This document shows, piece by piece, positions 3,165 through 64,000 of a stretch of DNA of 64,000 nucleotides (its first letter is position 1; every line of letters starts with the position of its first letter). The position numbers and the translations under genes are program-made. The stretch comes from Escherichia coli (lineage in GTDB: Bacteria; Pseudomonadota; Gammaproteobacteria; Enterobacterales; Enterobacteriaceae): the NCBI RefSeq assembly GCF_029227855.1, contig NZ_CP074356.1; one strand, given 5' to 3'. Under the pieces are notes generated by a model. It searched no databases, was not told the origin of the DNA, and saw only the letters and a program-made list of their open reading frames with translations.

Positions 3165-3965
<801 letters not shown>

Positions 3966-39057: not shown

Positions 39058-39158
39058 GCCGCGCATGATAGCAGAAAACGCGGCCATGAATGAGATCGAG
39101 CACACATTTTATGCAACAACAAATTATCTGTTGCAGTTATGAGTGATGCAGATCACAT

Positions 39159-39713
39159 TTACTCTTCAGAATCTTCTTCCAGCTCGTCCCACATTGCACT
39201 AATAGCATCGCGGGTTAGCGGTGCCATGGTGCGCCAAAAAGGCGTAGTTGCATGGGCCTCCACTTTACCAAGGAACGCACCACACCAGGGTAACAGATAC
39301 TCACTGAACAGTGTTTCCAGTGCTTCGCTCTCATCTTCCGTTGACTGATCTTCCAGCCAGGAAGCCGCGAGCAGCAATGTGCCGATGTGATCGGCTGGCG
39401 TATCCGCTAATGGCATCCCCCGTTCGGAAAGAAAAGCGCGCACTTCCGCTTCCGTCGCGCCCTCAACCCATGCGCTACGATATGGCGGCACAGCACATTC
39501 ATTGCCGATAAACAACGCATTGTAATCGGCAGAGACTTGCGTCATATCACAGCTTTTCTGCAAACGTGTCAGCAACTCATCCTGCTCCAGTGGCCAGTTC
39601 GCAGCCAGTTTCCCCTCACGAATCAGGGTAAACAGCGGCACCAGTAAAGGATCTTGTGGTTGGCGGTAATAGAGCGAACCCAGCACACGACAGAGGATAG
39701 AAAACTCGTTCAT
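39159..39713 (-). CDS. ycdY: TorD-family redox enzyme maturation chaperone YcdY
   Basis: 184 aa ORF, MNEFSILCRVLGSLYYRQPQDPLLVPLFTLIREGKL. Confidence 0.92.
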   Translation of the reverse strand: MNEFSILCRVLGSLYYRQPQDPLLVPLFTLIREGKLAANWPLEQDELLTRLQKSCDMTQVSADYNALFIGNECAVPPYRSAWVEGATEAEVRAFLSERGMPLADTPADHIGTLLLAASWLEDQSTEDESEALETLFSEYLLPWCGAFLGKVEAHATTPFWRTMAPLTRDAISAMWDELEEDSEE

Positions 39714-39736
39714 TAATATATTTCCATTACTAGTAA

Positions 39737-40474
39737 TTAAAGGTCTGCAAATTCCGCAATCGGTGCCATACCGCGAGATTCAAGGAAGTTCAGTAAGCGG
39801 CGCGGAGAAACATTCAAAATGCGCTCTGGCGGAAAATCTACCGCGTCGAGGATTTTAAGACACTCTTCAAATTCACCCATGGTAAACGCGGTGTGAGAAT
39901 CCGAGCCTAATGCCACCCAACCTCCAGCGTCACGTACTGCTGCGGCTACCGCACGACAATTGTCTTCACTTCCCTTACGTGAGTGTAAAAAAGAGGAATT
40001 ATTGATTTCCAGCGCCACCTGATGTTTCGCGGCTGCTTCAGCAACGGCTTTAACATCTATTTCATATTTCGGATTTCCGGGATGGCTTATTATATGCACA
40101 TTGCCGCTGGCGATAGTGGCGATCATCGCTTGCGTATTGGTCGCTTTGTCATGCGGCGCAAACACCGGCTCATGAAAACCGGCAATAATCAGATCCAGCG
40201 AATCAAACATTTTGCCACTGCAGTCAATTTCACCGTCAACATTTTTAATGTTAGCTTCGATGCCGCGCAGGATCCCAACCCCATCAACCACTCGCGGCCA
40301 GATACGCATGTTAATGAAGTGCCAGTGATGCGGCGCATCTTCCATATCCGGGCCATGATCGGTGATCGCAAAAAGTTTAATGCCCTTTTGTTTGGCCTGG
40401 GCAATGTAATCACTCAATGTGCTATATGCATGCGTGCTGGCAACGGTATGCATATGAAGGTCGACGGGATACAT
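39737..40474 (-). CDS. ycdX: PHP-family zinc-dependent phosphatase YcdX
   Basis: 245 aa [47 protein letters not shown] (PHP HxH motifs). Confidence 0.93.
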
Positions 40475-40528
40475 AACTCTCTCCTGTATTCAATTCCCGC
40501 CAAGGATAGCAGGAATCCTGATGCTTTA

Positions 40529-41506
<978 letters not shown>

Positions 41507-41700
41507 TTATCGTTATGATCTACAAAAGCCACCAGCATAACAAATCCGTGGTCGGTGGCAAAAAAAGCAGATTTCGCTTATTAAAACTGCATATTGATTG
41601 AAGTTTGAATAAACGCGCGATTTTTTAAAAAAGTTTGTTGACCTCAGGTCATGATTTCCCTAAATTAGCGCCCGTTCCAGCAAGACAGGAACAACAATTT

Positions 41701-41788
41701 GGTGAGGTGTCCGAGTGGCTGAAGGAGCACGCCTGGAAAGTGTGTATACGGCAACGTATCGGGGGTTCGAATCCCCCCCTCACCGCCA
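41701..41788 (+). tRNA. serX: tRNA-Ser (anticodon GGA), serX-type
   Basis: 88-nt GGTGAGGTGTCCGAGTGGCTGAAGGAGCACGCCTGGAAAGTG...GGTTCGAATCCCCCCCTCACCGCCA; long variable arm, encoded CCA; terminator follows. Confidence 0.93.
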
Positions 41789-41799
41789 TATTTAAAGAA

Positions 41800-41830
41800 G
41801 AGCTCGTACGAAAGTACGAGCTTTTTTTTT
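41800..41830 (+). terminator. Rho-independent terminator after serX
   Basis: GAGCTCGTAC-GAAA-GTACGAGCT followed by TTTTTTTTT. Confidence 0.85.
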
Positions 41831-41893
41831 CGTATATTGCATAGACCGGGGGGATGAGAAGCCCCAGGCGGAGGTCGACAACTAGCGACAGAC

Positions 41894-43261
41894 TCATTCA
41901 TCATCCTTGCGGTTGATAAGAATTTCTGCCTCTTTTACTACCACCTTATTACGCCCGGTCTCTTTCGCCTCGTAAAGTGCGTTATCAGCCAGTTGATAGA
42001 TCTCCTTAGGGTTTAACTCATTTTTCTGCGTTACAACAGCGCCAATACTAATCGTCACTTTTTGTGGTATGGCGTATTCAGGATTATCACCAGTTAAACG
42101 CTCAACATTTTCCCGAATCCTTTCCGCTAAAGCTTTCGCACGTTCAGTATCGATGTCCGTCAGCAAGACGCCAAACTCTTCGCCGCCGACGCGCGCAAAA
42201 AGGTCATCTGGCCGTATGCTTTTCCCAATGATACTCACCACTGTTTTTATCACCTGATCGCCAACCGGATGCCCCCAGGTGTCGTTGACTTTTTTGAAGT
42301 GGTCGATATCCATAATCATGACGCAATAAGGCGTTTTTTTGGCCGATGCTGATTGAACTGTCAGTTCATTAAAAAAATAATTTCTGTTAAATATATTGGT
42401 TAAGGAATCGCGATGTGCAATGTCCTTTGTTACTCGTAGCGCACTGAATATATGGCACATAAATATTACCATAACGGTTAACTTACTGACTACTTCAATA
42501 GTGCGACTAATATACCAAATGGACACGCTATACCTGCTCATAAATAAAAGAGAGACATTGTACAGTACGGCACAAAAAGCAATCACCGTCACTCCATTCC
42601 AGATATCACAGCGTAAACCATTAAAGTATAGATTAACTGAAAGCAAGGTTAACCACATGAAAATCATTATGGTAACATATGATGTTTTCCAAACCACCTG
42701 ATCATTTTCATTGGTTAACTCGGCAATGTGTAAATTGTAGCTCTCATAATGACTAGAAAGTATGTGAGCAACTATCGGCCCCCCAACAACAAAAAACAAA
42801 CTTATGCACAAAGTCATTTTTTTAGAAAATAAATTGCGCTGTTTTGTGTTTTCACTAACTTTATTCACCAATGCCAGAAATATTAATATGCACAAACTCA
42901 TCTGACGAAACAAATAATAGATTGCAATGTCATTTTGAACAACACTGCTTGTCAAACGCCCCTCAATAATTTGCTGAATGATAATGACGGTTTTAACAAA
43001 GTAAATCAAACAACTCAGAAAAGCCAAACTAAGTATACAGTTTGAAAATTGCCTACGGTCATAAATGAAATACAACTGCATAAAAATAAATGCAACAGTA
43101 TCGATAAAAAATAAAGCAATCATTACCATCAGATAGGTTGATCGTGGAACAACTTCCTCAACGCCTGGCTGATTAAACCAACTATTCACCAAAACCAAAG
43201 CAAGCCCAAACAATAAGCTCACTAATACAGTACTACTAATTCTCAAATAGTCTTTTTCCAT
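41894..43261 (-). CDS. dgcT: Diguanylate cyclase DgcT (YcdT), membrane sensor with GGDEF domain
   Basis: ORF 41894..43384; start placed at MEKDYLRISSTVLVSLLFGLALVL; GGEEF active-site motif (RVGGEEFGVLL). Confidence 0.9.
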   Translation of the reverse strand: MEKDYLRISSTVLVSLLFGLALVLVNSWFNQPGVEEVVPRSTYLMVMIALFFIDTVAFIFMQLYFIYDRRQFSNCILSLAFLSCLIYFVKTVIIIQQIIEGRLTSSVVQNDIAIYYLFRQMSLCILIFLALVNKVSENTKQRNLFSKKMTLCISLFFVVGGPIVAHILSSHYESYNLHIAELTNENDQVVWKTSYVTIMIFMWLTLLSVNLYFNGLRCDIWNGVTVIAFCAVLYNVSLLFMSRYSVSIWYISRTIEVVSKLTVMVIFMCHIFSALRVTKDIAHRDSLTNIFNRNYFFNELTVQSASAKKTPYCVMIMDIDHFKKVNDTWGHPVGDQVIKTVVSIIGKSIRPDDLFARVGGEEFGVLLTDIDTERAKALAERIRENVERLTGDNPEYAIPQKVTISIGAVVTQKNELNPKEIYQLADNALYEAKETGRNKVVVKEAEILINRKDDE

Positions 43262-43616
43262 AAAGCTACACCAATCTGTAGGTTGTAGATCCCTTTCTAT
43301 TATTAATAGATATAAGAACTGTACTGTTGTCAATATGAAATTCCGCCCACAAACAATACCAATGATGATAGTTGCATACCGCAATTATTATTGCCTTAGT
43401 GCTTTATACATTCTTCGCGACAAGACAGGCTTGCAAATACATATAAATGGTTATAAGGAAATCCTTATAAAACATTAATTCATAGATATATTAGGAATAA
43501 CAATTGAATCCGTGAGTACAGTAACGCTGCACTTCATCAGGACTTTCGAAAAATCGATATCATGCATCGGAATTTACTGATTTAATTATTTTAATCCTAA
43601 TTTATTTTGAAAAAGG

Positions 43617-43850
43617 CATTGGGATTTATGCCGTATTCCTGAAGTTCCTCATCATTGGAATGGATTTTCAGGCGAGAAAAGGATTTTATATGGATACTCT
43701 ACTCATCATTTCTTCTTCTCATCATCAACAATTCACGTCTCTCTTCCGCGTTTAATAACGGATTATGATGTGCAAAAAAAATATCTTTCGTTTCAGTTAC
43801 CTGTAATTAGATACAGAGAGAGATTTTGGCAATACATGGAGTAATACAGG
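43617..43850 (+). promoter_or_regulatory. pgaA promoter and long 5' leader with multiple GGA motifs (candidate CsrA sites)
   Basis: Repeated GGA-containing motifs (GGGATT, AGGATT, ACAGGATG at the RBS) upstream of the pgaA ATG; CsrA control of pgaA is established knowledge. Confidence 0.5.
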
Positions 43851-46274
43851 ATGTATTCAAGTAGCAGAAAAAGGTGCCCGAAAACCAAATGGGCTTTGAA
43901 AATTCTTACTGCCGCATTTTTAGCAGCGAGTCCCGCGGCGAAGAGTGCTGCTAATAATGCCTATGATGCATTGATTATCGAAGCTCGCAAGGGAAATACT
44001 CAGCCAGCTTTGTTATGGTTTGCACAAAAATCAGCACTCAGTAATAACCAAATTGCTGACTGGTTACAGATTGCCTTATGGGCCGGGCAAGATAAACAGG
44101 TTATTACCGTTTACAACCGCTACCGTCATCAGCAATTACCAGCGCGTGGTTATGCAGCTGTCGCCGTCGCTTATCGTAACCTGCAACAATGGCAAAACTC
44201 GCTTACACTGTGGCAAAAGGCACTCTCTCTGGAGTCGCAAAATAAGGATTATCAACGGGGACAAATTTTAACCCTGGCAGATGCGGGTCACTATGATTCT
44301 GCGCTGGTTAAACTTAAGCAGCTTAACTCTGGAGCACCGGACAAAGCTAATTTACTCGCAGAAGCCTATATCTATAAACTGGCGGGGCGGCATGAGGATG
44401 AATTACGGGCGATGACAGGGTCATTACCTGAAAATGCCTTAACGCAACAATATCCCACAGAATACGTGCAGGCATTACGGAATAATCAACTTGCTGCCGC
44501 GATTGACGATGCCAATTTAACGCCAGATATTCGCGCTGATATTCATGCCGAACTGGTCAGACTGTCGTTTATGCCTACGCGCAGTGAAAGTGAACGTTAT
44601 GCCATTGCCGATCGCGCCCTCGCCCAATACGCTGCATTAGAAATTCTGTGGCATGATAACCCTGACCGCACTGCCCAGTACCAGCGTATTCAGGTTGATC
44701 ATCTTGGCGCGTTATTAACTCGCGATCGTTATAAAGACGTTATTTCTCACTATCAGCGTTTAAAAAAGACGGGGCAAATTATTCCGCCCTGGGCGCAATA
44801 TTGGGTTGCGTCGGCTTATCTCAAAGAACATCAGCCAAAAAAAGCACAGTCAATAATGACAGAGCTCTTTTATCACAAGGAGACCATTGCCCCGGATTTA
44901 TCCGATGAAGAACTTGCGGATCTCTTTTACAGCCACCTGGAGAGTGAAAATTATCCCGGCGCGCTAACTGTCACCCAACATACCATTAATACTTCGCCGC
45001 CTTTCCTTCGGTTAATGGGCACGCCTACGAGCATCCCGAATGATACCTGGTTACAGGGGCATTCGTTTCTCTCAACCGTAGCTAAATATAGTAATGATCT
45101 TCCTCAGGCTGAAATGACAGCCAGAGAGCTTGCTTATAACGCACCAGGAAATCAGGGACTGCGCATTGATTACGCGAGTGTGTTACAAGCCCGCGGTTGG
45201 CCTCGTGCGGCAGAAAATGAATTAAAAAAAGCAGAAGTGATCGAGCCACGTAATATTAATCTGGAGGTTGAACAAGCCTGGACAGCATTAACGTTACAAG
45301 AATGGCAGCAGGCAGCGGTCTTAACGCACGATGTTGTCGAACGTGAACCGCAAGATCCCGGCGTTGTACGTTTAAAACGTGCGGTTGATGTACATAATCT
45401 TGCAGAGCTTCGTATCGCTGGCTCAACAGGAATTGATGCCGAAGGTCCGGATAGTGGCAAACATGATGTCGACTTAACCACCATCGTTTATTCACCACCG
45501 CTGAATGATAACTGGCGCGGTTTTGCTGGATTCGGTTATGCCGATGGACAATTTAGCGAAGGAAAAGGGATTATTCGCGACTGGCTTGCGGGTGTTGAGT
45601 GGCGGTCACGTAATATCTGGCTTGAGGCGGAGTACACCGAACGCTTTTTCAATCATGAGCATAAACCCGGCGCGCGCCTGTCTGGCTGGTATGATTTTAA
45701 TGATAACTGGCGTATTGGTTCGCAACTGGAACGCCTCTCTCACCGCGTTCCATTACGGGCAATGAAAAATGGTGTTACAGGCAACAGTGCACAGGCTTAT
45801 GTTCGCTGGTATCAAAATGAGCGGCGTAAGTACGGTGTCTCCTGGGCTTTCACTGATTTTTCTGACAGTAATCAGCGTCATGAAGTCTCACTTGAGGGTC
45901 AGGAACGCATCTGGTCTTCACCATATTTGATTGTCGATTTCCTACCCAATCTGTATTACGAACAAAATACAGAACACGACACTCCATACTACAACCCTAT
46001 AAAAACGTTCGATATTGTTCCGGCATTTGAGGCAAGTCATTTGTTATGGCGTAGCTATGAAAATAGCTGGGAGCAAATCTTCAGCGCAGGTGTTGGTGCC
46101 TCCTGGCAAAAACATTATGGCACGGATGTCGTCACCCAACTCGGCTACGGGCAACGCATTAGCTGGAATGACGTGATTGATGCTGGCGCAACGCTACGCT
46201 GGGAAAAACGACCTTATGACGGTGACAGAGAACACAACTTATACGTTGAATTCGATATGACATTCAGATTTTAA
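43851..46274 (+). CDS. pgaA: Poly-beta-1,6-N-acetylglucosamine export porin PgaA
   Basis: 807 aa ORF, MYSSSRKRCPKTKWALKILTAAFLAASPAA; TPR-like N-half and beta-barrel C-half. Confidence 0.95.
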   Translation: MYSSSRKRCPKTKWALKILTAAFLAASPAAKSAANNAYDALIIEARKGNTQPALLWFAQKSALSNNQIADWLQIALWAGQDKQVITVYNRYRHQQLPARGYAAVAVAYRNLQQWQNSLTLWQKALSLESQNKDYQRGQILTLADAGHYDSALVKLKQLNSGAPDKANLLAEAYIYKLAGRHEDELRAMTGSLPENALTQQYPTEYVQALRNNQLAAAIDDANLTPDIRADIHAELVRLSFMPTRSESERYAIADRALAQYAALEILWHDNPDRTAQYQRIQVDHLGALLTRDRYKDVISHYQRLKKTGQIIPPWAQYWVASAYLKEHQPKKAQSIMTELFYHKETIAPDLSDEELADLFYSHLESENYPGALTVTQHTINTSPPFLRLMGTPTSIPNDTWLQGHSFLSTVAKYSNDLPQAEMTARELAYNAPGNQGLRIDYASVLQARGWPRAAENELKKAEVIEPRNINLEVEQAWTALTLQEWQQAAVLTHDVVEREPQDPGVVRLKRAVDVHNLAELRIAGSTGIDAEGPDSGKHDVDLTTIVYSPPLNDNWRGFAGFGYADGQFSEGKGIIRDWLAGVEWRSRNIWLEAEYTERFFNHEHKPGARLSGWYDFNDNWRIGSQLERLSHRVPLRAMKNGVTGNSAQAYVRWYQNERRKYGVSWAFTDFSDSNQRHEVSLEGQERIWSSPYLIVDFLPNLYYEQNTEHDTPYYNPIKTFDIVPAFEASHLLWRSYENSWEQIFSAGVGASWQKHYGTDVVTQLGYGQRISWNDVIDAGATLRWEKRPYDGDREHNLYVEFDMTFRF

Positions 46275-46282
46275 GGATAAAT

Positions 46283-48301
46283 ATGTTACGTAATGGAAAT
46301 AAATATCTCCTGATGCTGGTGAGTATAATTATGCTCACTGCGTGCATTAGCCAGTCAAGAACATCATTTATACCGCCACAGGATCGCGAATCTTTACTCG
46401 CCGAGCAACCGTGGCCGCATAATGGTTTTGTGGCGATTTCATGGCATAACGTTGAAGACGAAGCTGCCGGCCAGCGTTTTATGTCAGTGCGGACATCAGC
46501 ACTGCGTGAACAATTTGCCTGGCTGCGCGAGAACGGTTATCAACCGGTCAGTATTGCTCAAATTCGTGAAGCACATCAAGGAGGAAAGCCGCTACCGGAA
46601 AAAGCAGTAGTGCTAACTTTTGATGACGGCTACCAGAGTTTTTATACCCGCGTCTTCCCAATTCTTCAGGCCTTCCAGTGGCCTGCTGTATGGGCCCCCG
46701 TCGGCAGTTGGGTCGATACGCCAGCGGATGAACAAGTAAAATTTGGCGATGAGATGGTCGATCGAGAATATTTTGCCACGTGGCAACAAGTGCGAGAAGT
46801 TGCGCGTTCCCGGCTCGTTGAGGTCGCTTCTCATACATGGAATTCTCACTACGGTATTCAGGCTAATGCCACCGGCAGCTTATTGCCTGTATATGTAAAT
46901 CGTGCATATTTTACTGACCACGCACGGTATGAAACCGCAGCAGAATACCGGGAAAGAATTCGTCTGGATGCTGTAAAAATGACGGAATACCTGCGTACAA
47001 AGGCTAAGGTAAATCCACACGTTTTTGTTTGGCCTTATGGCGAAGCGAATGGCATAGCGATAGAGGAATTAAAAAAACTCGGTTATGACATGTTCTTCAC
47101 CCTTGAATCAGGTTTGGCAAATGCGTCACAATTGGATTCCATTCCGCGAGTATTAATCGCCAATAATCCCTCATTAAAAGAGTTTGCCCAGCAAATTATT
47201 ACCGTACAGGAAAAATCACCACAACGGATAATGCATATCGATCTTGATTACGTTTATGACGAAAACCGCCAGCAAATGGATCGCAATATTGATGTGCTAA
47301 TTCAGCGGGTGAAAGATATGCAAATATCAACCGTGTATTTGCAGGCATTTGCTGATCCCGATGGTGATGGGCTGGTCAAAGAGGTCTGGTTTCCAAATCG
47401 TTTGCTACCAATGAAAGCAGATATTTTTAGTCGGGTTGCCTGGCAATTACGTACCCGCTCAGGTGTAAACATCTATGCGTGGATGCCGGTATTAAGCTGG
47501 GATTTAGATCCCACATTAACGCGAGTAAAATACTTACCGACTGGGGAGAAAAAAGCACAAATTCATCCTGAACAATATCGCCGTCTCTCTCCTTTCGATG
47601 ACAGAGTCAGAGCACAAGTTGGCATGTTATATGAAGATCTTGCCGGACATGCTGCTTTTGATGGCATATTGTTCCACGATGATGCTTTGCTTTCAGATTA
47701 TGAAGATGCCAGTGCACCGGCTATCACGGCTTATCAGCAAGCAGGCTTTAGCGGGAGTCTGAGCGAAATTCGACAAAACCCGGAGCAATTTAAACAGTGG
47801 ACCCGCTTTAAAAGTCGTGCGTTAACTGACTTCACTTTAGAACTTAGTGCGCGCGTAAAAGCCATTCGCGGTCCACATGTTAAAACTGCACGAAATATTT
47901 TTGCACTTCCGGTAATACAACCTGAAAGTGAAGCCTGGTTTGCACAGAATTATGCTGATTTCCTAAAAAGCTATGACTGGACCGCTATTATGGCTATGCC
48001 TTATATGGAAGGTGTAGCAGAAAAATCGGCTGACCAATGGTTAATACAATTGACCAATCAAATTAAAAACATCCCTCAGGCTAAAGACAAATCTATTTTA
48101 GAATTACAGGCACAAAACTGGCAGAAAAATGGTCAGCATCAGGCTATTTCTTCGCAACAACTCGCTCACTGGATGAGCCTATTACAACTGAATGGAGTGA
48201 AAAACTATGGTTATTATCCCGACAATTTTCTGCATAACCAACCTGAAATAGACGTTATTCGTCCTGAGTTTTCAACAGCCTGGTATCCGAAAAATGATTA
48301 A
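46283..48301 (+). CDS. pgaB: Poly-beta-1,6-N-acetylglucosamine N-deacetylase lipoprotein PgaB
   Basis: 672 aa [27 protein letters not shown] (lipobox LTAC). Confidence 0.95.
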
Positions 48302-49619
48302 TCGCATCGTATCGTTTTTTATATTATGTCTGGTGTTATGCATACCCCTATGCGTAGCGTACTTTCACTCTGGTGAACTGATGATGAGGTTCGTTTTCTT
48401 CTGGCCGTTTTTTATGTCCATCATGTGGATTGTTGGCGGCGTCTATTTCTGGGTCTATCGTGAACGCCACTGGCCGTGGGGAGAAAACGCACCAGCTCCC
48501 CAGTTGAAAGATAATCCGTCTATCTCCATTATCATTCCCTGTTTTAATGAGGAGAAAAACGTTGAGGAAACCATACACGCCGCTTTAGCACAGCGTTATG
48601 AGAACATTGAAGTTATTGCCGTAAATGACGGTTCAACAGACAAAACCCGTGCCATCCTGGATCGCATGGCTGCACAAATTCCCCACCTGCGGGTCATTCA
48701 TCTGGCGCAAAACCAGGGGAAAGCCATTGCGCTTAAAACCGGAGCTGCCGCGGCGAAAAGTGAATATCTGGTGTGCATTGATGGCGATGCGTTATTAGAC
48801 CGCGATGCGGCGGCATATATTGTGGAACCGATGTTGTACAACCCGCGTGTGGGTGCCGTAACCGGTAATCCTCGTATTCGAACACGTTCTACCCTGGTGG
48901 GTAAAATTCAGGTTGGCGAGTATTCCTCAATTATTGGTTTGATCAAGCGAACCCAGCGTATCTATGGAAACGTATTTACCGTTTCCGGTGTTATTGCCGC
49001 ATTTCGTCGCAGCGCCCTGGCAGAAGTGGGTTACTGGAGTGACGATATGATCACCGAAGATATTGATATTAGCTGGAAGCTGCAGTTGAATCAGTGGGCG
49101 ATTTTTTACGAGCCACGGGCGCTGTGCTGGATATTAATGCCTGAAACGTTAAAAGGGCTGTGGAAACAGCGCCTGCGCTGGGCTCAGGGCGGTGCAGAAG
49201 TATTCCTCAAAAATATGACAAGGTTGTGGCGCAAAGAAAACTTTCGAATGTGGCCGCTGTTTTTTGAATACTGCCTGACGACAATATGGGCCTTCACTTG
49301 CCTGGTCGGTTTCATTATTTACGCAGTCCAACTTGCCGGTGTACCGTTAAATATTGAATTGACACATATCGCTGCGACACATACTGCCGGAATATTATTG
49401 TGTACGTTATGTTTACTGCAATTTATTGTCAGCCTGATGATCGAGAATCGCTATGAGCATAATCTGACTTCATCGCTTTTCTGGATTATTTGGTTCCCGG
49501 TTATTTTCTGGATGCTGAGTCTGGCAACGACATTGGTATCATTTACACGAGTCATGTTGATGCCTAAAAAGCAACGCGCCCGTTGGGTAAGTCCCGATCG
49601 CGGGATTCTGAGAGGTTAA
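48294..49619 (+). CDS. pgaC: Poly-beta-1,6-N-acetylglucosamine synthase PgaC (GT2 family)
   Basis: 441 aa [27 protein letters not shown]; GT2 D,D,D and QRxRW motifs; overlaps pgaB by 8 nt. Confidence 0.95.
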
Positions 49620-49620
49620 T

Positions 49621-50034
49621 ATGAACAATTTAATTATTACGACCCGACAATCGCCAGTACGTTTAATGGTTGATTATGTTGCCACAACCATCTTATGGAC
49701 ATTATTTGCTTTGTTCATATTCTTATTCGCCATGGATCTGCTGACGGGTTATTACTGGCAAAGCGAGGCCAGAAGCCGACTTCAGTTCTATTTTTTGCTG
49801 GCAGTGGCGAATGCCGTCGTGTTAATTGTCTGGGCGCTGTACAATAAGCTACGTTTTCAAAAACAGCAGCATCATGCAGCCTACCAATATACGCCGCAAG
49901 AATATGCTGAGAGCTTAGCAATACCTGATGAGCTCTATCAGCAACTACAAAAAAGCCACAGGATGAGCGTACACTTCACCAGGCAGGGGCAAATAAAAAT
50001 GGTGGTTTCAGAAAAAGCGCTAGTCCGGGCGTAA
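49621..50034 (+). CDS. pgaD: PGA synthesis accessory protein PgaD
   Basis: 137 aa [37 protein letters not shown]. Confidence 0.93.
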
Positions 50035-50043
50035 ACACCCAAA

Positions 50044-50066
50044 ACAAAGCCCGGTTCGCCCGGGCT
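50044..50066 (-). terminator. Hairpin terminator in the convergent pgaD/phoH gap
   Basis: AGCCCGG-TTCG-CCCGGGCT; the minus-strand reading is followed by a T-rich tract. Confidence 0.65.
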
Positions 50067-50083
50067 CTGCGCCGATAATACAC

Positions 50084-50872
50084 TTAACTGTATGCATGTA
50101 GCGTACGTTGGCAAAGTGCCGAACGTACGCAATCCTCTTTACCGAATCGGACGATCCCGACCATTTCATCTTCTTCGAAACGTTCCAGCGCGTCACTTAA
50201 TCCGGAGCGCACGCCGCGAGGCAAATCGCATTGCGTGATATCACCGTTGACGATAACCGTCACGTTCTCCCCGAGGCGGGTTAAAAACATTTTCATTTGC
50301 GCGGCAGTCACATTCTGCGCCTCGTCAAGAATGACGACTGCATTTTCAAAGGTACGTCCACGCATATAGGCGAACGGCGCAATTTCCACCTTCCCTATTT
50401 CCGGTCGCAGGCAGTACTGCATAAAGGAAGCCCCTAAGCGCCGGACCAGCACGTCGTAGACCGGACGAAAATAGGGAGCAAACTTTTCTGCGATATCTCC
50501 AGGTAAGAAGCCAAGATCTTCATCGGCTTGCAGAACTGGACGGGTGACGATAATCCTGTCGACATCCTTATGTATCAGGGCCTCTGCCGCTTTTGCTGCG
50601 CTGATCCAGGTTTTTCCGCACCCGGCTTCGCCCGTGGCGAATATCAGCTGCTTACTCTCAATAGCCTTCAGATAGTGCAATTGCGCTTCATTTCGCGCGA
50701 GGATGGGCGAGGTATCGCGACTGTCGCGGGCCATACCAATGGCTTCTACGCCGCTCATCTGCACAAGCGAGGTGACCGATTCTTCTTCACGCTGCTTATG
50801 GCTGCGCGAATCCCGTCTCAGCACACGTTTTGCCTCGCGACGAGCTTTGATCACTGCTTTTTGTCTTCCCAT
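50084..50872 (-). CDS. phoH: Phosphate-starvation-inducible ATPase PhoH (conserved core); upstream start unresolved
   Basis: Core MGRQKAVIKARREAKRV...GEAGCGKTW (Walker A) to ...LHAYS. Same frame stays open up to a GTG at 51007; a different-frame ATG at 51147 opens a 98-codon ORF that ends at 50851. Confidence 0.85.
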   Translation of the reverse strand: MGRQKAVIKARREAKRVLRRDSRSHKQREEESVTSLVQMSGVEAIGMARDSRDTSPILARNEAQLHYLKAIESKQLIFATGEAGCGKTWISAAKAAEALIHKDVDRIIVTRPVLQADEDLGFLPGDIAEKFAPYFRPVYDVLVRRLGASFMQYCLRPEIGKVEIAPFAYMRGRTFENAVVILDEAQNVTAAQMKMFLTRLGENVTVIVNGDITQCDLPRGVRSGLSDALERFEEDEMVGIVRFGKEDCVRSALCQRTLHAYS

Positions 50873-51339
50873 GGAGAGCACCTTGAGTTGTTTGTATTCA
50901 TCACACGCGCCGTTGGCAGCGCGATTATGCGCACGAACATCAGAGGGTTGGCTTCCTTGTAAGCCATAGTTTGCTTTTGGATAAAATGCCGAAAAACGGC
51001 TACGCACACCGTTTGCGGCGTCGGTAACACGAGTAAAGAGAGGAAGTGAGAAAAATACAGAGTGACGAAGTTGCTACCGGAGGAGAAATCTCCGCGAGTG
51101 GTGGAGCCTTGCTTAACAAAACATTGTCCAGAACAGGACGTTACCATACGCGATCTCCATAGTGACTGACTATCACTGCCGGGAACTTCCGCTGCTACTT
51201 AATAAGTACAACAGATCTCGCATTCATTGCAACAATATATTCACTTATATTTAACTACAAAACACCATTTCAGTGACATTAGTTTCTACTGGAAAGATGA
51301 CAGAGTGATGACAGTGATGAAAAAAGCTGTGTGCTTTCA

Positions 51340-51490
51340 GCAGGATTCGCATCAGGCATCAGCGCACGAACGCCGGATGCGGCGTGAACGCCTGATCCAG
51401 CCTACCAAACCCGCACCGATTGTAGGCATGATAAGACGCGCAAGCGTCGCATCAGGCATCTGCGCACGAACGCCTTATCCGCCTAAACAC
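51340..51490. repeat. Cluster of REP elements between efeB and phoH
   Basis: Tandem REP-like units GCCGGATGCGGCGTGAACGCCTGATCC, TGTAGGCATGATAAGACGCGCAAGCGTCGCATCAGGCA and CGCACGAACGCCTTATCCGCC. Confidence 0.75.
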
Positions 51491-51491
51491 A

Positions 51492-52763
51492 TTAAACCCG
51501 CAATAACGCGCTTCCGAGATAATCGTTCGCGTCCTTCACTCCCGGCAGCGAAAAAAAATAACCACCGCCGATAGGTTTAACGTATTCCTCCAGCGCTTCG
51601 CCATTGAGCCTTTTTTGTACTGTCAGGAAGCCTTTTTCCAGATCGTGTTGATAGCAGACAAACAGTAGCCCCATATCCAGTTGTCCGGAGTTGGTGACGC
51701 CCAACGAATAACTGTAGCCACGACGCAGCATCAGGCTGGACTCACTCTCTGGCGTGCGGGGATTCGCCAGCCGGATATGGCTGTCCAGCGCAATCACCTT
51801 CCCCTCCGGATCGCTGGCGTAATCGGGAACATCATGCTCATGCTGCATTCCCAGCGGCGCACCGGTTTGTTTGTCGCGACCAAAAATCGTCTGCTGTTCT
51901 TTCAGTGGCGTTCTGTCCCAAAACTCCACCCGAAACTGAATCAACCGCACCGCCTGATAGCTGCCACCGATTGTCCACTCAGGCTCCTGCTGATCTGCCG
52001 TTACCCACACCACTTTTTGCATCAACTTATCATTCTGGCTATCGGGATTGGCAGTGCCGTCTTTGAAACCCAGCAAATTTATCGGCGTCTCTTTGCCTTT
52101 ACTACGCGCCGCGTGATCGGAAATAAACCCTTCCCGCTTCCAGCGCACACTGAGCAAATCCGGCGTGTGTTTGATGATATCGCGCAGCGCATGGATCACC
52201 GTATCCTGGGTGTTGGCGCAAATTTGTAGCAACACATCACCATGACATAACGCCGCATCAAGCGAGTCATTGGGGAAACGCGTCATCTTCTGCAGCTTTT
52301 TCGGCATCTGCGACGCAAGGCCAAAGCGCTCATCAAACAATGAGTGGCCCACCGATAATGTGATGGTGAGATTATCGGGCGCAATGTAGCCGCCAAGAAT
52401 GCCGGAATCGAGTGGTGGCAGGCGCGGATTTGGCGTTTCTGGTGCCGCTCCGCCCTGAGTCAGAAAAGAAAAACGCTGAGTCAACAAGCGAAACAACCGT
52501 TCAAGATCGGCTTTATCGCTGGCAAGCACATCAAACGCCACCAGCATCATTGCGGCCTGTTGTGGCGTCAGGATCCCTGCCTGATGCTCACCATAAAACG
52601 GCTGCTTCTCATTGCGTGCATCCGGTGAAAGCGTCCCCGGTGCACTTTGCGTTTTTTGTGCATGAGCGACCGGACAACTTCCTGCCAGCGCCAGTGCACC
52701 AATCCCTTTCAGTAAACGTCGGCGTGACGGTTCATTCACGCCGTTTTCATCTTCATACTGCAT
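51492..52763 (-). CDS. efeB: Dyp-type haem peroxidase / deferrochelatase EfeB (Tat-secreted)
   Basis: 423 aa ORF with twin-arginine signal [29 protein letters not shown]. Confidence 0.95.
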
Positions 52764-52768
52764 AACGC

Positions 52769-53896
52769 TTAATCCAGCCCCAGCACACCGCGAAGTTGCG
52801 CCAGATCTTCCGCCAGCGCAGTAATCGGCCCTTTCAGCGCATTACGGTCAGCATCGGTCAATTTGTCGTAGGTTTCAAAACCGTCTTTAGTACGGTATTT
52901 CGCCAGAATGGTATCGACCTTTTTGAAGTTGGCATCGACTTTTGCCAGCAGTTCCGGGTTGGCTTTTTGTAGTTGTGGACGCAGCAGATCGACAATTTTC
53001 TGCGAGCCTTCAACGTTAGCCTGGAAATCCCACAGATCGGTGTGGCTGTAGCGATCTTCTTCACCGCTGATTTTGCTGGCTGCCACTTCCTCAATCAGTC
53101 CGGCTGCGCCGCCGACCACTTTTGACGGAGGGAAAGCCAGTTCACTGATGCGTTTTTGCAAATCGACCACATCGGTATAAAGCTGGTCGGCATACTTATC
53201 CATCCCTTTAGTGGTGTTATCGCCAAACAATGCTTTTTCCAGACGGTGGAAACCGGTGAATTTTGGATCGGCGGCTTTTTGCTCGTAATCATCTTCACGG
53301 GCGTCAATGCTACCATCCAGATCGGAGAACAGTTCAGCAATCGGTTCAATGCGCTCATAGTGCTGGCGCGTCGGCGCATACAGTGCTTTCGCTTTTTCGA
53401 TATCGCCTGCTTTAATAGCGTCGGTAAAGGCTTTGGTGTCGGTCACCAGCTGCGTGGTTTCCGCCATGACATACGCTTTATATGCAGTAATTGCACCACC
53501 GAGACTTAACAGCGCATCACTTTGCGCCGCATCCGCCGTTGCTTCACCTTTGACGATCAACTTCCCTTTCGGGTTAGTCAGCAGACCGCAGGTCATATCG
53601 TATTCGCCAGGCTGTAAATTCGCCGTCATTTTCTGGCTAAAGCCAGGGGCGATATTTTCTCGCTCTTCCACCACCATCACGCCTTTGAGGATCTCCCACT
53701 CCAGCGCCTTCTGGCTGTGGTTCTGAATAATGAACTGTGTTTTCCCGGCGTTAACCGTAATGGTCATCGGTTCGCACTGCTTATCCGTCACGGTGACTTT
53801 GACTTGCGGAATATCGGCGGCGTTAGCCATAAAAGCAGAAGAGAACAGCGCAGCCACGCTCAACTGCAATGCGTTACGGCGGAAGTTAATGGTCAT
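52769..53896 (-). CDS. efeO: Periplasmic iron uptake protein EfeO
   Basis: 375 aa [39 protein letters not shown]. Confidence 0.95.
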
Positions 53897-53953
53897 GACG
53901 AGACTATCCCTTTAAAGTATGTTGTAACTAAGCAAGAGTTTGCGTCGTATTTG

Positions 53954-54784
53954 TTACGCGGAGCGAGACGCTGTCGCCCCTGCGCGTGGTGGCAGAGCAA
54001 ATGCCACCAGCGCCGGGATGAGATAAATAAACCAGACGGCGACTTCGCTGACACTTGGCGCTTCCTGATAGCCAAAAATCCCTTCCATCAGCGTGCCAAA
54101 CAGCGAGTGAGTTGAGAGCACCGCACTCATATCGAAGGCGATTTCCTGAAAGTGGTTCCACAATCCGGCTTCATGAAATGCGCGAATGGCACCAGCTGCC
54201 AGCCCAGCGGCGACGAAGAGAATAAACAGGCTGGTCCATTTAAAAAATGCACCAAGATTGAGGCGAATACCGCCCCAGTAGAGCAGGAAGCCGAGCACCA
54301 CGGCTGTAGCAAGACCGAGCATTGCACCCAGCGGCGGCCAGATCCCGACATCTTGTTGAAATGCCGCCAGCAGGAAAAAGACCGACTCCAGCCCTTCCCT
54401 TGCAACGGCAAAAAAGACCATCATCACCAGCGCCCAGCCATGATGATTTCCACGCTGCAATGCGCTATCGACTGCCTGCTCCAGTTGTACTTTGACGTTG
54501 CGCGACACTTTGCGCATCCAGAAAACCATCCAGGTAAGGATCACCACGGCGATCACCGCCACGATACCTTCAAACAGTTCCTGTTCTTTTTGCGGAAATT
54601 CGCCGGTGGTTTCGTTAATGAAGATACCCAAGCCCAGGCACAACGCAGCGGCAAGCAACACGCCAATCCACATCACACCAATCCATCGGCCTCGCTGGGT
54701 ACGCTTAAGATAGCTGGCAATCAAACTGACAATCAGCGCGGCTTCAAGTCCTTCGCGCAACATAATGAGAAATGGAACAAACAT
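53954..54784 (-). CDS. efeU: Ferrous iron permease EfeU (FTR1 family), apparently intact
   Basis: ORF 53954..54793; start placed at MFVPFLIMLREGLEAALIVSLIASYL (276 aa), uninterrupted, with REGLE and RExxE motifs. Confidence 0.9.
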   Translation of the reverse strand: MFVPFLIMLREGLEAALIVSLIASYLKRTQRGRWIGVMWIGVLLAAALCLGLGIFINETTGEFPQKEQELFEGIVAVIAVVILTWMVFWMRKVSRNVKVQLEQAVDSALQRGNHHGWALVMMVFFAVAREGLESVFFLLAAFQQDVGIWPPLGAMLGLATAVVLGFLLYWGGIRLNLGAFFKWTSLFILFVAAGLAAGAIRAFHEAGLWNHFQEIAFDMSAVLSTHSLFGTLMEGIFGYQEAPSVSEVAVWFIYLIPALVAFALPPRAGATASRSA

Positions 54785-54841
54785 GCCACCCACCCTTAAA
54801 CGTTTTTCTGAGTCAATCTATGCAAAGAAAAGTAAATCGCA

Positions 54842-54860
54842 GTGATAGCGATTATCATTA
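54842..54860. promoter_or_regulatory. Candidate Fur box upstream of efeUOB
   Basis: TGATAGCGATTATCATTAC resembles the Fur consensus GATAATGATAATCATTATC, about 60 nt upstream of the efeU start. Confidence 0.5.
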
Positions 54861-54993
54861 CGGCAAAGAAAAATACAAGCGGAATGTTTATAAAATGATG
54901 TTGGAATGTAAACAAAGAGAGGTAATGCCAGGGGATATAAACGATTATTCCAGGTACAAAGATGGGATTGTTTACAACGAGCCATGTGTTCTT

Positions 54994-55027
54994 GCCAGAT
55001 GCCGCGTAAACGCCTTATCCAGCCGAC
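54994..55027. repeat. REP-like element in the putP-efeU spacer
   Basis: GCCAGATGCCGCGTAAACGCCTTATCCAGCCGAC matches the REP family seen elsewhere in the window. Confidence 0.6.
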
Positions 55028-55437
55028 AAAACTGTCCAGACTCAATGCATCAGAGCTTCCATGTAAAACTGATAAGCGGGTGTATCAAGCAATTTCGTCC
55101 ATCCGCGATTATCAAATCTAACTTTTTGCCCGGAACATAATAACAGCTCGGGTGTTGGTGGCGTCAAAGTCGCTGAAGCGTTCCCCGAAGGCCGGGGCAG
55201 CCCACATGGATGTGGGCTGAGGGCGCGTCTTACAGGACATTACCTCGCGCCCGACCCGGTAGCCGAAGGGGATAAGCTGAAGGTACCGCGCAGCGGCGAT
55301 TTTGTTCGCCAGAGCCCGGGGTGCAGGGGGTGGCGGCGATTGGCCGCCCCCTGCACCATTCAATTTATATGGCGAGGCACATTAAGGGAGCGCAACCCGC
55401 TGCTGAAGCCAAACAAAACCGCCGCAGGCTAAGTCCC

Positions 55438-56946
<1,509 letters not shown>

Positions 56947-57368
56947 CTAAAGTCTCCAAAAAATTATTATCGGCAATGTCGAAACTTGCCGTTATATCTG
57001 CCACCGGAACGGGGTAGCAGAGTTTATGTTTTACCAGGGCGACCGTATCCTGCCGGAAGCGCTGGTTATTCACAATCGATTTAACACACCATTTACATTA
57101 AATTTTAGTGCTCAGCGACACTATTTTTCATCAGGTTGCACTCTCTCACATTTTTTGCGGTTGCACCTTTCAAAAATGTTAACTGCCGCAGAGAAAAAGT
57201 CTGAGTTATTTTTTTAATCCCTGTCATATCGATTTCTTTTATTAACATTTCATTCATTTTTAAGCTTGCTACGCAGGTCACATTTAACATGGTTGCACAA
57301 AGTTGCAACATCATGGATATTTCACGATAACGTTAAGTTGCACCTTTCAGAACAACAGGAGTAATGGC
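56947..57368. promoter_or_regulatory. put control region with PutA operator motifs
   Basis: Five GTTGCA motifs at 57135, 57160, 57292, 57302 and 57337 in the 422-bp divergent putP-putA spacer; GTTGCA is the known PutA operator core. Confidence 0.75.
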
Positions 57369-60300
57369 ATGGGAACCACCACCATGGGGGTTAAGCTGGA
57401 CGACGCGACGCGTGAGCGTATTAAGTCTGCCGCGACACGTATCGATCGCACGCCACACTGGTTAATTAAGCAGGCGATTTTTTCTTATCTTGAACAACTG
57501 GAAAACAGCGATACTCTTCCGGAGCTACCTGCGCTGCTTTCTGGCGCTGCCAATGAGAGCGATGAAGCACCCACTCCGGCAGAGGAACCACACCAGCCAT
57601 TCCTCGACTTTGCCGAGCAAATTTTGCCCCAGTCGGTTTCCCGCGCAGCTATCACCGCTGCCTATCGCCGCCCGGAAACCGAAGCGGTTTCTATGCTGCT
57701 GGAACAAGCCCGCCTGCCGCAGCCAGTTGCTGAACAGGCGCATAAACTGGCATATCAACTGGCCGATAAACTGCGTAATCAAAAAAATGCCAGTGGTCGC
57801 GCAGGTATGGTCCAGGGGTTATTGCAGGAGTTTTCGCTGTCATCGCAGGAAGGCGTGGCGCTGATGTGTCTGGCGGAAGCGTTGTTGCGTATTCCCGACA
57901 AAGCCACCCGTGATGCATTAATTCGCGACAAAATCAGCAACGGTAACTGGCAGTCACACATTGGTCGTAGCCCGTCCCTGTTTGTTAATGCCGCTACCTG
58001 GGGGCTGCTGTTTACCGGCAAACTGGTTTCCACCCATAACGAAGCCAGCCTCTCCCGCTCGCTGAACCGCATTATCGGTAAGAGCGGTGAACCGCTGATC
58101 CGCAAAGGTGTGGATATGGCGATGCGCCTGATGGGCGAGCAGTTCGTCACTGGCGAAACCATCGCGGAAGCGTTAGCCAATGCCCGCAAGCTGGAAGAGA
58201 AAGGTTTCCGTTACTCTTACGATATGCTGGGCGAAGCCGCGCTGACTGCCGCAGATGCACAGGCGTATATGGTTTCCTATCAGCAGGCGATTCACGCCAT
58301 TGGTAAAGCGTCCAATGGTCGTGGTATCTATGAAGGTCCGGGCATTTCAATCAAGCTGTCGGCGTTGCATCCGCGTTACAGTCGCGCCCAGTATGACCGG
58401 GTAATGGAAGAGCTTTACCCACGTCTGAAATCACTCACCCTGCTGGCGCGTCAGTACGATATTGGTATTAACATCGATGCCGAAGAGGCCGATCGTCTGG
58501 AGATCTCCCTCGATCTGCTGGAAAAACTCTGTTTCGAGCCGGAACTGGCAGGCTGGAACGGCATCGGTTTTGTTATTCAGGCTTATCAAAAACGCTGTCC
58601 GTTGGTGATTGATTACCTGATTGATCTCGCCACCCGCAGCCGTCGCCGTCTGATGATTCGCCTGGTGAAAGGCGCGTACTGGGATAGTGAAATCAAGCGC
58701 GCGCAGATGGACGGCCTTGAAGGTTATCCGGTTTATACCCGCAAGGTGTATACCGACGTTTCATATCTCGCCTGTGCGAAAAAGCTGCTGGCGGTGCCGA
58801 ATTTAATCTACCCGCAGTTCGCAACGCATAACGCCCATACGCTGGCGGCAATTTATCAACTGGCGGGTCAAAACTACTACCCGGGTCAGTACGAGTTCCA
58901 GTGCCTGCATGGTATGGGCGAGCCACTGTATGAGCAGGTCACCGGGAAAGTTGCCGACGGCAAACTTAACCGTCCATGTCGTATTTATGCTCCGGTCGGT
59001 ACCCATGAAACGCTGCTGGCGTATCTGGTGCGTCGCCTGCTGGAAAACGGTGCTAACACCTCGTTTGTTAACCGTATTGCTGACACCTCTTTGCCACTGG
59101 ATGAACTGGTTGCCGATCCGGTCACTGCTGTAGAAAAACTGGCGCAACAGGAAGGTCAAACTGGATTACCACATCCGAAAATTCCCCTGCCACGCGATCT
59201 TTACGGTCACGGGCGCGACAACTCGGCAGGGCTGGATCTCGCTAACGAACACCGTCTGGCCTCGCTCTCTTCTGCCCTGCTCAATAGTGCACTGCAAAAA
59301 TGGCAGGCCTTGCCAATGCTGGAACAACCGGTCACGGCTGGTGAGATGTCGCCCGTTATTAACCCGGCAGAGCCGAAAGATATTGTGGGCTATGTGCGCG
59401 AAGCCACGCCGAGTGAAGTAGAACAGGCGCTGGAAAGTGCGGTTAATAACGCGCCAATCTGGTTTGCCACGCCTCCGGCTGAACGCGCGGCGATTTTGCA
59501 TCGCGCTGCCGTGCTGATGGAAAGCCAGATGCAGCAACTGATTGGTATTCTGGTGCGTGAAGCCGGAAAAACCTTCAGTAACGCCATTGCCGAAGTGCGC
59601 GAAGCGGTCGATTTTCTCCACTACTACGCCGGACAGGTGCGGGATGATTTCGCTAACGAAACCCACCGTCCATTAGGGCCTGTGGTGTGTATCAGTCCGT
59701 GGAACTTCCCGCTGGCTATTTTCACCGGGCAGATCGCCGCCGCACTGGCGGCAGGTAACAGCGTGCTGGCAAAACCGGCAGAACAAACGCCGCTGATTGC
59801 CGCGCAAGGGATCGCCATTTTGCTGGAAGCGGGTGTACCGCCAGGCGTGGTGCAATTGCTGCCAGGTCGGGGGGAAACCGTGGGCGCGCAACTGACGGGT
59901 GATGATCGCGTGCACGGGGTGATGTTTACCGGATCAACCGAAGTCGCTACGTTACTGCAACGCAATATCGCCAGCCGCCTGGACGCTCAGGGTCGCCCTA
60001 TTCCGCTCATCGCTGAAACCGGCGGCATGAACGCGATGATTGTCGATTCTTCAGCACTGACCGAACAAGTCGTAATAGATGTGCTGGCCTCGGCGTTCGA
60101 CAGTGCAGGTCAGCGTTGTTCGGCACTGCGCGTGCTGTGCCTGCAAGATGAGATTGCCGACCACACGTTGAAAATGCTGCGCGGCGCAATGGCCGAATGC
60201 CGGATGGGTAATCCGGGTCGCCTGACCACCGATATCGGTCCGGTGATTGATAGCGAAGCGAAAGCCAATATCGAGCGTCATATTCAGACCATGCGTAGCA

Positions 60301-61331
60301 AAGGCCGTCCGGTGTTCCAGGCGGTGCGGGAAAACAGCGAAGATGCCCGTGAATGGCAAAGCGGCACCTTTGTCGCCCCGACGCTGATCGAACTGGATGA
60401 CTTTGCCGAATTGCAAAAAGAGGTCTTTGGTCCGGTGCTGCATGTGGTGCGTTACAACCGTAACCAGCTGCCGGAGCTGATCGAGCAGATTAACGCTTCC
60501 GGCTATGGTCTGACGCTTGGCGTTCATACGCGTATTGATGAAACCATCGCCCAGGTCACTGGCTCGGCCCATGTCGGTAACCTGTACGTTAACCGTAATA
60601 TGGTGGGCGCAGTGGTCGGGGTGCAGCCGTTCGGCGGCGAAGGGTTGTCCGGTACCGGGCCGAAAGCAGGCGGTCCGCTCTATCTCTACCGTCTGCTGGC
60701 GAATCGCCCGGAAAGTGCGCTGGCAGTGACGCTCGCGCGTCAGGATGCAGAGTATCCGGTCGATGCGCAGTTGAAAGCCGCATTGACTCAGCCGCTAAAT
60801 GCACTGCGGGAATGGGCGGCAAACCGTCCAGAATTGCAGGCGTTATGTACGCAATATGGCGAGCTGGCGCAGGCAGGAACACAGCGATTGCTGCCAGGGC
60901 CGACGGGTGAACGCAACACCTGGACGCTGCTGCCGCGCGAGCGCGTGTTGTGTATTGCGGATGATGAGCAGGATGCGCTGACTCAGCTCGCCGCCGTGCT
61001 GGCGGTGGGCAGCCAGGTGCTGTGGCCGGATGACGCGCTGCATCGTCAGTTAGTGAAGGCATTGCCATCGGCAGTCAGCGAACGTATTCAACTGGCGAAA
61101 GCGGAAAATATAACCGCTCAACCGTTTGATGCGGTGATCTTCCACGGTGATTCGGATCAGCTTCGCGCATTGTGTGAAGCCGTTGCCGCGCGGGATGGCG
61201 CAATTGTTTCGGTGCAAGGTTTTGCCCGTGGCGAAAACAATATCCTTCTGGAACGGCTGTATATCGAACGCTCGCTGAGTGTGAATACCGCTGCCGCTGG
61301 CGGTAACGCCAGTTTAATGACGATCGGTTAA
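57369..61331 (+). CDS. putA: Bifunctional proline dehydrogenase / P5C dehydrogenase and repressor PutA
   Basis: ORF 57303..61331; start placed at MGTTTMGVKLDDATRERIKSAATRIDRTPHWLIKQAIFSYL (1320 aa). Confidence 0.96.
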   Translation: MGTTTMGVKLDDATRERIKSAATRIDRTPHWLIKQAIFSYLEQLENSDTLPELPALLSGAANESDEAPTPAEEPHQPFLDFAEQILPQSVSRAAITAAYRRPETEAVSMLLEQARLPQPVAEQAHKLAYQLADKLRNQKNASGRAGMVQGLLQEFSLSSQEGVALMCLAEALLRIPDKATRDALIRDKISNGNWQSHIGRSPSLFVNAATWGLLFTGKLVSTHNEASLSRSLNRIIGKSGEPLIRKGVDMAMRLMGEQFVTGETIAEALANARKLEEKGFRYSYDMLGEAALTAADAQAYMVSYQQAIHAIGKASNGRGIYEGPGISIKLSALHPRYSRAQYDRVMEELYPRLKSLTLLARQYDIGINIDAEEADRLEISLDLLEKLCFEPELAGWNGIGFVIQAYQKRCPLVIDYLIDLATRSRRRLMIRLVKGAYWDSEIKRAQMDGLEGYPVYTRKVYTDVSYLACAKKLLAVPNLIYPQFATHNAHTLAAIYQLAGQNYYPGQYEFQCLHGMGEPLYEQVTGKVADGKLNRPCRIYAPVGTHETLLAYLVRRLLENGANTSFVNRIADTSLPLDELVADPVTAVEKLAQQEGQTGLPHPKIPLPRDLYGHGRDNSAGLDLANEHRLASLSSALLNSALQKWQALPMLEQPVTAGEMSPVINPAEPKDIVGYVREATPSEVEQALESAVNNAPIWFATPPAERAAILHRAAVLMESQMQQLIGILVREAGKTFSNAIAEVREAVDFLHYYAGQVRDDFANETHRPLGPVVCISPWNFPLAIFTGQIAAALAAGNSVLAKPAEQTPLIAAQGIAILLEAGVPPGVVQLLPGRGETVGAQLTGDDRVHGVMFTGSTEVATLLQRNIASRLDAQGRPIPLIAETGGMNAMIVDSSALTEQVVIDVLASAFDSAGQRCSALRVLCLQDEIADHTLKMLRGAMAECRMGNPGRLTTDIGPVIDSEAKANIERHIQTMRSKGRPVFQAVRENSEDAREWQSGTFVAPTLIELDDFAELQKEVFGPVLHVVRYNRNQLPELIEQINASGYGLTLGVHTRIDETIAQVTGSAHVGNLYVNRNMVGAVVGVQPFGGEGLSGTGPKAGGPLYLYRLLANRPESALAVTLARQDAEYPVDAQLKAALTQPLNALREWAANRPELQALCTQYGELAQAGTQRLLPGPTGERNTWTLLPRERVLCIADDEQDALTQLAAVLAVGSQVLWPDDALHRQLVKALPSAVSERIQLAKAENITAQPFDAVIFHGDSDQLRALCEAVAARDGAIVSVQGFARGENNILLERLYIERSLSVNTAAAGGNASLMTIG

Positions 61332-61370
61332 ACAGGTAGCCGGAGGATGTTACAACCTCCTCCGGCATCT

Positions 61371-62009
61371 TTAACGTGGTCGAATCCCCTCAATAATAAT
61401 CCGCTGCACGTTTTCAACCGTTTGATTGAAAAATACCTCATCGCGCAACGTCGCGCCTGTCACCGCCTCCACCTGAGGGGCGAAATCGGCGTAATGTTGA
61501 GTGGAAGCCCAAATCATAAAAATCAAATGCTGCGGGTCAATCGGCGCGAGTTTGCCGCTTTTTACCCAACCGGCAATCAGCGCCGATTTTTCATCAATTA
61601 ATGCCTTCAAATCGCCCGTCAGTTCATCCATTAACAGCGGCGCGCCTGCCAGCATCTCCATACAGAACAGGCGCGAAGCCTGCGGATAATCGCGTGAGAC
61701 TTCCAGCTTCAGACGGATGTACTCTTTGATCGCCGCCAGCGGGGCGAAATCTTCACGAAACGCTTTTAACGGTGCCAGCCAGATATCGAGAATCTGCCGC
61801 AGCACGGCAATATACAGCGCCTCTTTTGACGGAAAGTAATACAGCAGATTGGTTTTTGAAACACCCGCCAACTCTGCGATCTGCTCCAGCCTTGTGCCGT
61901 GAAAACCGAATTGTGAAAAAGTGTCCAGTGCTGCGCTAAGAATCGCTTTTTTCTTCGCGCTCACTGCGCGCGAACGTTTACCCGTTGTTTTCACTGCGCC
62001 TTGCGTCAT
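61371..62009 (-). CDS. rutR: TetR-family regulator RutR
   Basis: ORF 61371..62036; start placed at MTQGAVKTTGKRSRAVSAKKKAILSAALDTFSQFGFHGTRLEQIAELAGVSKTNLLYYF (212 aa). Confidence 0.93.
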   Translation of the reverse strand: MTQGAVKTTGKRSRAVSAKKKAILSAALDTFSQFGFHGTRLEQIAELAGVSKTNLLYYFPSKEALYIAVLRQILDIWLAPLKAFREDFAPLAAIKEYIRLKLEVSRDYPQASRLFCMEMLAGAPLLMDELTGDLKALIDEKSALIAGWVKSGKLAPIDPQHLIFMIWASTQHYADFAPQVEAVTGATLRDEVFFNQTVENVQRIIIEGIRPR

Positions 62010-62239
62010 GCGCTCTCCCCTCTTGTAGATTGGCAACAGGATAGCAAAACCCCTGCCCGGCCTCGACCTTCTGCACTTTCATCGCGCACGGATGCATGTT
62101 TTATGTGCAACTGTTTTGACCGTTTAGTCCACTTTTTTCCAGATATTTTAGATAACTTAACATTAACACATTAATAACATTCACTTTTTAAAAACTGGCA
62201 TCCGCTTTGCAAACAAACCATTACGCGGCTGAAAAGGAT

Positions 62240-64000
<1,761 letters not shown>

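Follow-up and report, generated by a model that had tools for sequence, protein, structure and literature searches.

In Escherichia coli O157:H7, the iron transporter EfeUOB (YcdNOB) was shown to be functional by Cao et al. 2007 (PMID 17627767), as reported in passages of PMC7549933 and PMC2808357, and its function in both O157:H7 and Nissle is credited to Cao 2007 and Grosse 2006 in the parts of PMC7549933, PMC2808357, PMC4746246 and PMC9174327 that cite them. In the laboratory strain K-12 MG1655, by contrast, the transporter is described in the relevant portions of the same four articles, citing PMID 17627767 and PMID 16987175, as non-functional through a frameshift in efeU. Further afield, yeast Ftr1p/Fet3p (OFeT), together with FtrABCD, P19/cFtr1 and FepABC, is set beside EfeUOB in a section of PMC9174327 as sharing a permease with the FTR1 signature, paired RExxE motifs and an extracytoplasmic redox partner. 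The partners themselves differ: in EfeUOB they are a cupredoxin–M75 protein and a DyP haem peroxidase, whereas in yeast OFeT the partner is a multicopper ferroxidase. The present study suggests that the 64,000-nt stretch of DNA analysed here (the window) very probably carries the ordinary, functional efeUOB (ycdNOB) operon of a non-K-12 E. coli, function being predicted. Specifically, because the loss of a G at codon 36 that disables the K-12 gene is absent, we predict an active operon, as in O157:H7 and Nissle 1917. Gene integrity, family membership, motifs, the K-12 lesion, the identity of EfeU with that of O157:H7, upstream conservation and allele frequency were computed here; for transport activity, control by Fur and CpxAR, and induction of EfeUOB by acid, we infer from the literature what the operon would do. 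The three genes and the landmarks within efeU are as follows.

53954..54784, minus strand: efeU, an FTR1/OFeT-family inner-membrane iron permease; uninterrupted open reading frame of 276 codons plus TAA.
54743..54757, minus strand: first REGLE (RExxE) motif, residues 10-14, in the first hydrophobic segment of EfeU; regular-expression match on the translation.
54386..54400, minus strand: second REGLE (RExxE) motif, residues 129-133 of EfeU; regular-expression match on the translation.
54678..54679, minus strand: GG dinucleotide at efeU nt 106-107, codon 36, intact in the window; from alignment with K-12.
52769..53896, minus strand: efeO, encoding a 375-residue periplasmic protein with cupredoxin and M75 (imelysin-like) parts; from family models.
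51492..52763, minus strand: efeB, a Tat-exported DyP-type haem peroxidase/deferrochelatase of 423 residues; from family models.

A sequence-only reading of this DNA had proposed that efeU is uninterrupted, with 276 codons and REGLE/RExxE motifs, and all of this stands. The gene translates as one frame of 831 nt from the ATG at 54784 to the TAA at 53956..53954, with no internal stop; a frameshift or stop that the reading might have overlooked was looked for, and none is present in the translation. A mechanical list of open reading frames gives a variant of 279 residues that starts at a GTG at 54793; the ATG start agrees with the RefSeq annotation of the DNA-identical gene (100%) in the clinical isolate JNEC-KY178. 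The product scores 331.2 bits against the NCBIfam equivalog model for EfeU, NF041756 (cut-off 255), and 351.7 bits against TIGR00145 (cut-off 303.8), and the Pfam FTR1 domain (PF03239) spans residues 1-275 of its 276 at 1.8e-89. The two REGLE motifs begin at residues 10 and 129. A crude Kyte–Doolittle scan (19-residue window, threshold 1.6) finds six clear hydrophobic segments, and the charged residues of the stretch that bears the second REGLE (approximately residues 117-140) keep it under that threshold; by this crude scan, the profile is consistent with the seven helices of the family. A sequence search of the PDB at E<=1e-3 matched no chain to EfeU and, as far as that search shows, the FTR1/OFeT permease family is without an experimentally solved sequence relative.

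The proposal that intact efeO and efeB follow efeU was equally sound: the genes lie in the order efeU, efeO, efeB on one strand, with spacers of 57 nt (efeU–efeO) and 5 nt (efeO–efeB), and the products of efeO and efeB cover their NCBIfam models from end to end. All three proteins are full-length and exceed the curated equivalog cut-offs. EfeO matches NF007697 over residues 1-375 of 375 at 774 bits, matches the Pfam families Cupredoxin_1 and Peptidase_M75, has a Sec-type N-terminus and an HRLE motif at residue 217, and finds the EfeO structure 7wgu in the PDB at 3.6e-229. EfeB scores 618 bits against TIGR01412 (cut-off 428), matches Dyp_perox_N and Dyp_perox_C, and finds the E. coli YcdB structures 2y4f/3o72 at about 1e-261 or better. 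It carries the twin-arginine motif SRRRLL at residue 13 and retains D235, H329 and R347, which we take, from the structure papers on YcdB/EfeB, to be catalytic or haem-binding residues.

In K-12 MG1655 (NC_000913.3, b4490), efeU (ycdN) occupies the same putP–efeO locus, with putP on one side and efeO on the other, and its annotation is that of an 830-bp pseudogene. Alignment of the two alleles, which are not identical, reveals nine substitutions, all synonymous, and a single 1-bp deletion. The sequence-only reading had named a frameshift in the K-12 gene, and this was correct: one G of ATTGGTG (efeU nt 106/107) is gone, and three-frame translation places a stop at codon 37. K-12 efeU thus terminates at codon 37 and is therefore annotated as a pseudogene; when the G is restored, the K-12 gene encodes a protein identical to the EfeU of the window. 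Elsewhere in the operon, the window differs from the K-12 proteins by three residues in EfeO and eight in EfeB, none of the latter at D235, H329 or R347. The efeU substitutions and indel, additional DNA in the putP–efeU spacer and a copy of IS200 confirm the assignment of this DNA to a non-K-12 strain. The intact efeU by itself rules out K-12, yet little else about lineage follows from it, as it is the majority state.

The closest functional counterpart is the operon of O157:H7. Direct translation of efeU from O157:H7 strain YB14-1 gives a protein with no amino acid difference from that of the window, and JNEC-KY178 and YB14-1 share one EfeU accession, WP_000497942.1. The functional prediction for the EfeU of the window is strengthened by this identity with the O157:H7 protein. 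Gene order and the spacers between genes are also equal in the two operons, which differ by nine synonymous changes in efeU, two residues in EfeO and eight in EfeB; none of these EfeB substitutions falls on D235, H329 or R347.

The same intact form prevails across the species. Of 5426 complete E. coli genomes, 5417 contain efeU. An 80-nt probe that contains the K-12 deletion matched 368 of the 5417 records exactly, and the corresponding intact 81-mer matched 3587 exactly, with nearly all of the others spanning the 81 nt with SNPs. Since the K-12 deletion occurs in just 368 of the 5417 records, leaving approximately 93% without it, intact efeU is the species norm. A sample of the carriers listed for the K-12 allele consisted, judged by name or genome size, entirely of K-12-type laboratory strains (60 of 60), and the 368 carriers are nearly all laboratory K-12 derivatives.

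Two broken alleles were seen in isolates from food. TUM12357 (NZ_CP134370.1), a chicken-meat isolate with a genome of 5.03 Mb, has an efeU that is 100% identical to that of K-12 over 930 nt, G deletion included (3936..4765 of the extracted locus; labelled "frameshifted" by PGAP). In MBT-5 (NZ_CP058682.2), isolated from salad, efeU has independently lost 1 bp from a run of six T at nt 370-375, which corresponds to window positions 54410..54415 (1501..2330 of the extracted locus; again "frameshifted" in PGAP), and sequencing error could account for this homopolymer lesion. If both lesions are genuine, and neither errors of sequencing nor the result of recombination with K-12-like DNA, they would point to selection against EfeUOB in particular niches or to on/off switching at a homopolymer. 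That efeU is recurrently inactivated in natural E. coli, beyond laboratory K-12, is nonetheless unlikely in our estimation. The two lesions do not bear on the operon of the window, which is the standard intact form.

The DNA upstream of efeU contains four features that would be relevant to its expression.

54844..54862, minus strand: Fur-box-like site CGTAATGATAATCGCTATC, which precedes the efeU ATG by 60-78 nt; 15 of 19 positions match the consensus.
54851..54878, minus strand: possible sigma-70 promoter, with TTGTAT (54873..54878), 16 nt and GATAAT (54851..54856); identified by eye.
54822..54836, minus strand: candidate CpxR site TTTAC-N5-TTTGC, the reverse complement of GCAAA-N5-GTAAA.
54786..54798, minus strand: purine-rich ribosome-binding region TAAGGGTGGGTGG, directly before the efeU ATG; from the sequence.

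A Fur-box-like site before efeU had been noticed from the letters, and scoring against the 19-position consensus GATAATGATAATCATTATC makes it the best match in the 64-kb window: CGTAATGATAATCGCTATC is the sole site on either strand with a score of at least 15/19, with 0.17 such sites expected from mononucleotide shuffles. The site is unchanged in K-12, O157:H7 and MBT-5. The consensus match and this conservation predict that it is a Fur box, overlapping a putative promoter whose −10 element, GATAAT, lies inside it. A sigma-70 consensus scan of 51200..55500 returned no promoter-like site, and the putative efeU promoter was not called because its −35 element matches at only three of six positions. 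The promoter would thus be weak and, with its −10 within the Fur-box-like site, could be occluded by bound Fur. The CpxR consensus is GTAAA-N5-GTAAA. The candidate CpxR site, on the opposite strand, is a single mismatch from this motif, which is short, and it is invariant in K-12, O157:H7 and MBT-5. More generally, the approximately 130 nt before the efeU ATG are almost unchanged across the window, K-12, O157:H7 and MBT-5. The Fur-box-like site, CpxR-like motif and ribosome-binding region of O157:H7 are identical to those of the window, and the proximal regulatory DNA of K-12 is the same bar one base, at which the window agrees with O157:H7.

The published model of EfeUOB would apply to this operon as follows. 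EfeU would act as an Ftr1p-like inner-membrane permease that handles iron by its RExxE motifs. In the periplasm, Fe2+ would be handled or oxidised by EfeO and by EfeB, the haem peroxidase exported via Tat, and the periplasmic iron would then pass through EfeU, the three proteins together taking up ferrous iron at low pH. Transcription of efeUOB would be repressed by Fe-Fur at the box over the likely −10 element, and its control by pH would run via CpxAR. The system can be of little physiological importance: deletion of efeOB left the virulence of ExPEC unchanged, according to a passage of PMC7549933.

It could be argued that the operon, while intact in sequence, is silent or non-functional in its source strain, whether because its regulation has changed or because of the substitutions in EfeO or EfeB. 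The eight EfeB and two EfeO differences from O157:H7, the failure of the scan of 51200..55500 to detect a consensus promoter and the variability of the distal putP–efeU spacer between strains would all suit such an account, but we consider it very unlikely. EfeU is identical to the functional O157:H7 protein, the regulatory DNA is conserved over the proximal 130 nt, the catalytic residues and Tat motif of EfeB are intact, and the three proteins lie far over their equivalog cut-offs. Moreover, a clinical isolate shares the same 25 kb at 100% identity and thousands of genomes share it at approximately 99%, which fits purifying selection.

A second alternative, to which we give an equally low probability, concerns what the intact operon chiefly does: its main role could be the extraction of haem iron, or peroxide-linked chemistry, by EfeB acting as a deferrochelatase, with EfeU serving solely as the exit for the released iron. 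EfeB is named "deferrochelatase/peroxidase" in NCBIfam and in the PDB, and Letoffe et al. 2009, as relayed in a passage of PMC9174327, found iron to be taken from haem with the tetrapyrrole ring preserved. Against this, the portions of PMC7549933, PMC2808357, PMC4746246 and PMC9174327 that deal with EfeUOB describe it as a ferrous-iron transporter, and EfeU alone is an iron permease according to Grosse 2006 (PMID 16987175), as cited there. The haem-iron and Fe2+ roles are compatible with each other, and the sequence does not discriminate between them. That the integrity of efeU is an artefact of assembly or sequencing, such as a spurious extra G, is improbable in the extreme: single-base indels are a frequent type of error, and the MBT-5 deletion could be one in the opposite direction, but nothing else was found in its favour, and the intact 81-mer recurs exactly in 3587 complete genomes against 368 of 5417 for the K-12 form, while the allele of the window is 100% identical to that of an independent complete genome. 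The preferred reading is thus that of an ordinary, intact efeUOB operon with predicted ferrous-iron transport.

The DNA on either side of the operon varies more between strains. The putP–efeU spacer measures 542 bp in K-12, 653 bp in the window and 2673 bp in O157:H7, where, in contrast to the window, it includes an open reading frame for a hypothetical protein of 447 residues. Approximately 124 bp of the spacer in the window (55202..55325) is absent from K-12, which in turn contains 11 bp missing from the window. This extra segment belongs to a dispersed intergenic repeat of approximately 150 bp, present in a median of three and up to eight copies per E. coli genome, and is preceded by a strong GC-rich hairpin at 55320..55357. 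Palindromic units of the REP/BIME type (GCCGGATGCGGCG.../...GCCTGATGCGACGC...) lie past the efeB stop at approximately 51290..51490, and a REP-like unit lies in the spacer upstream of efeU at approximately 54995..55040; intergenic repeats of this kind are ordinary in E. coli. Farther along, at 50089..50282 on the plus strand, the Rfam family "Ysr251", a Yersinia antisense sRNA, matches at 193 bits in antisense orientation inside the phoH coding region. The match probably reflects conservation of phoH rather than a demonstrated E. coli sRNA.

The window also carries the IS200 copy that had been reported from the letters, which was verified. A tblastn search with an IS200 TnpA query finds tnpA at 33805..34260 on the minus strand, with 95% identity over 152 residues; the Rfam family STnc490 matches the adjoining 34270..34393 on the same strand; and megablast comparison reveals the insertion itself. 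The element, of 705 bp at approximately 33699..34403, interrupts the short csgA–csgC spacer within the csgBAC curli operon and is oriented like that operon; there it could uncouple expression of csgC from the csgBA promoter. Window positions 39001..64000 are 100% identical to JNEC-KY178, which by megablast lacks the IS200 copy and has three further mismatches within the first 34 kb; the source strain is therefore a close relative of JNEC-KY178 and not that isolate itself. The insertion is apparently common to N1131 and EC16, and among records of the complete E. coli collection the segment that bears it had no match above 99.1%.

An intact efeUOB operon outside K-12 is already known, having been in the literature since 2006-2007, and is the ordinary state of the locus. 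The practical value of the present analysis is one of annotation only: the efeU of the window is to be called a functional gene, as predicted. The analysis places the window outside the K-12 lineage and predicts for its source strain an extra route of iron uptake for conditions of low pH and low iron. Furthermore, models based on K-12 should not be carried over to that strain if they leave EfeUOB out.
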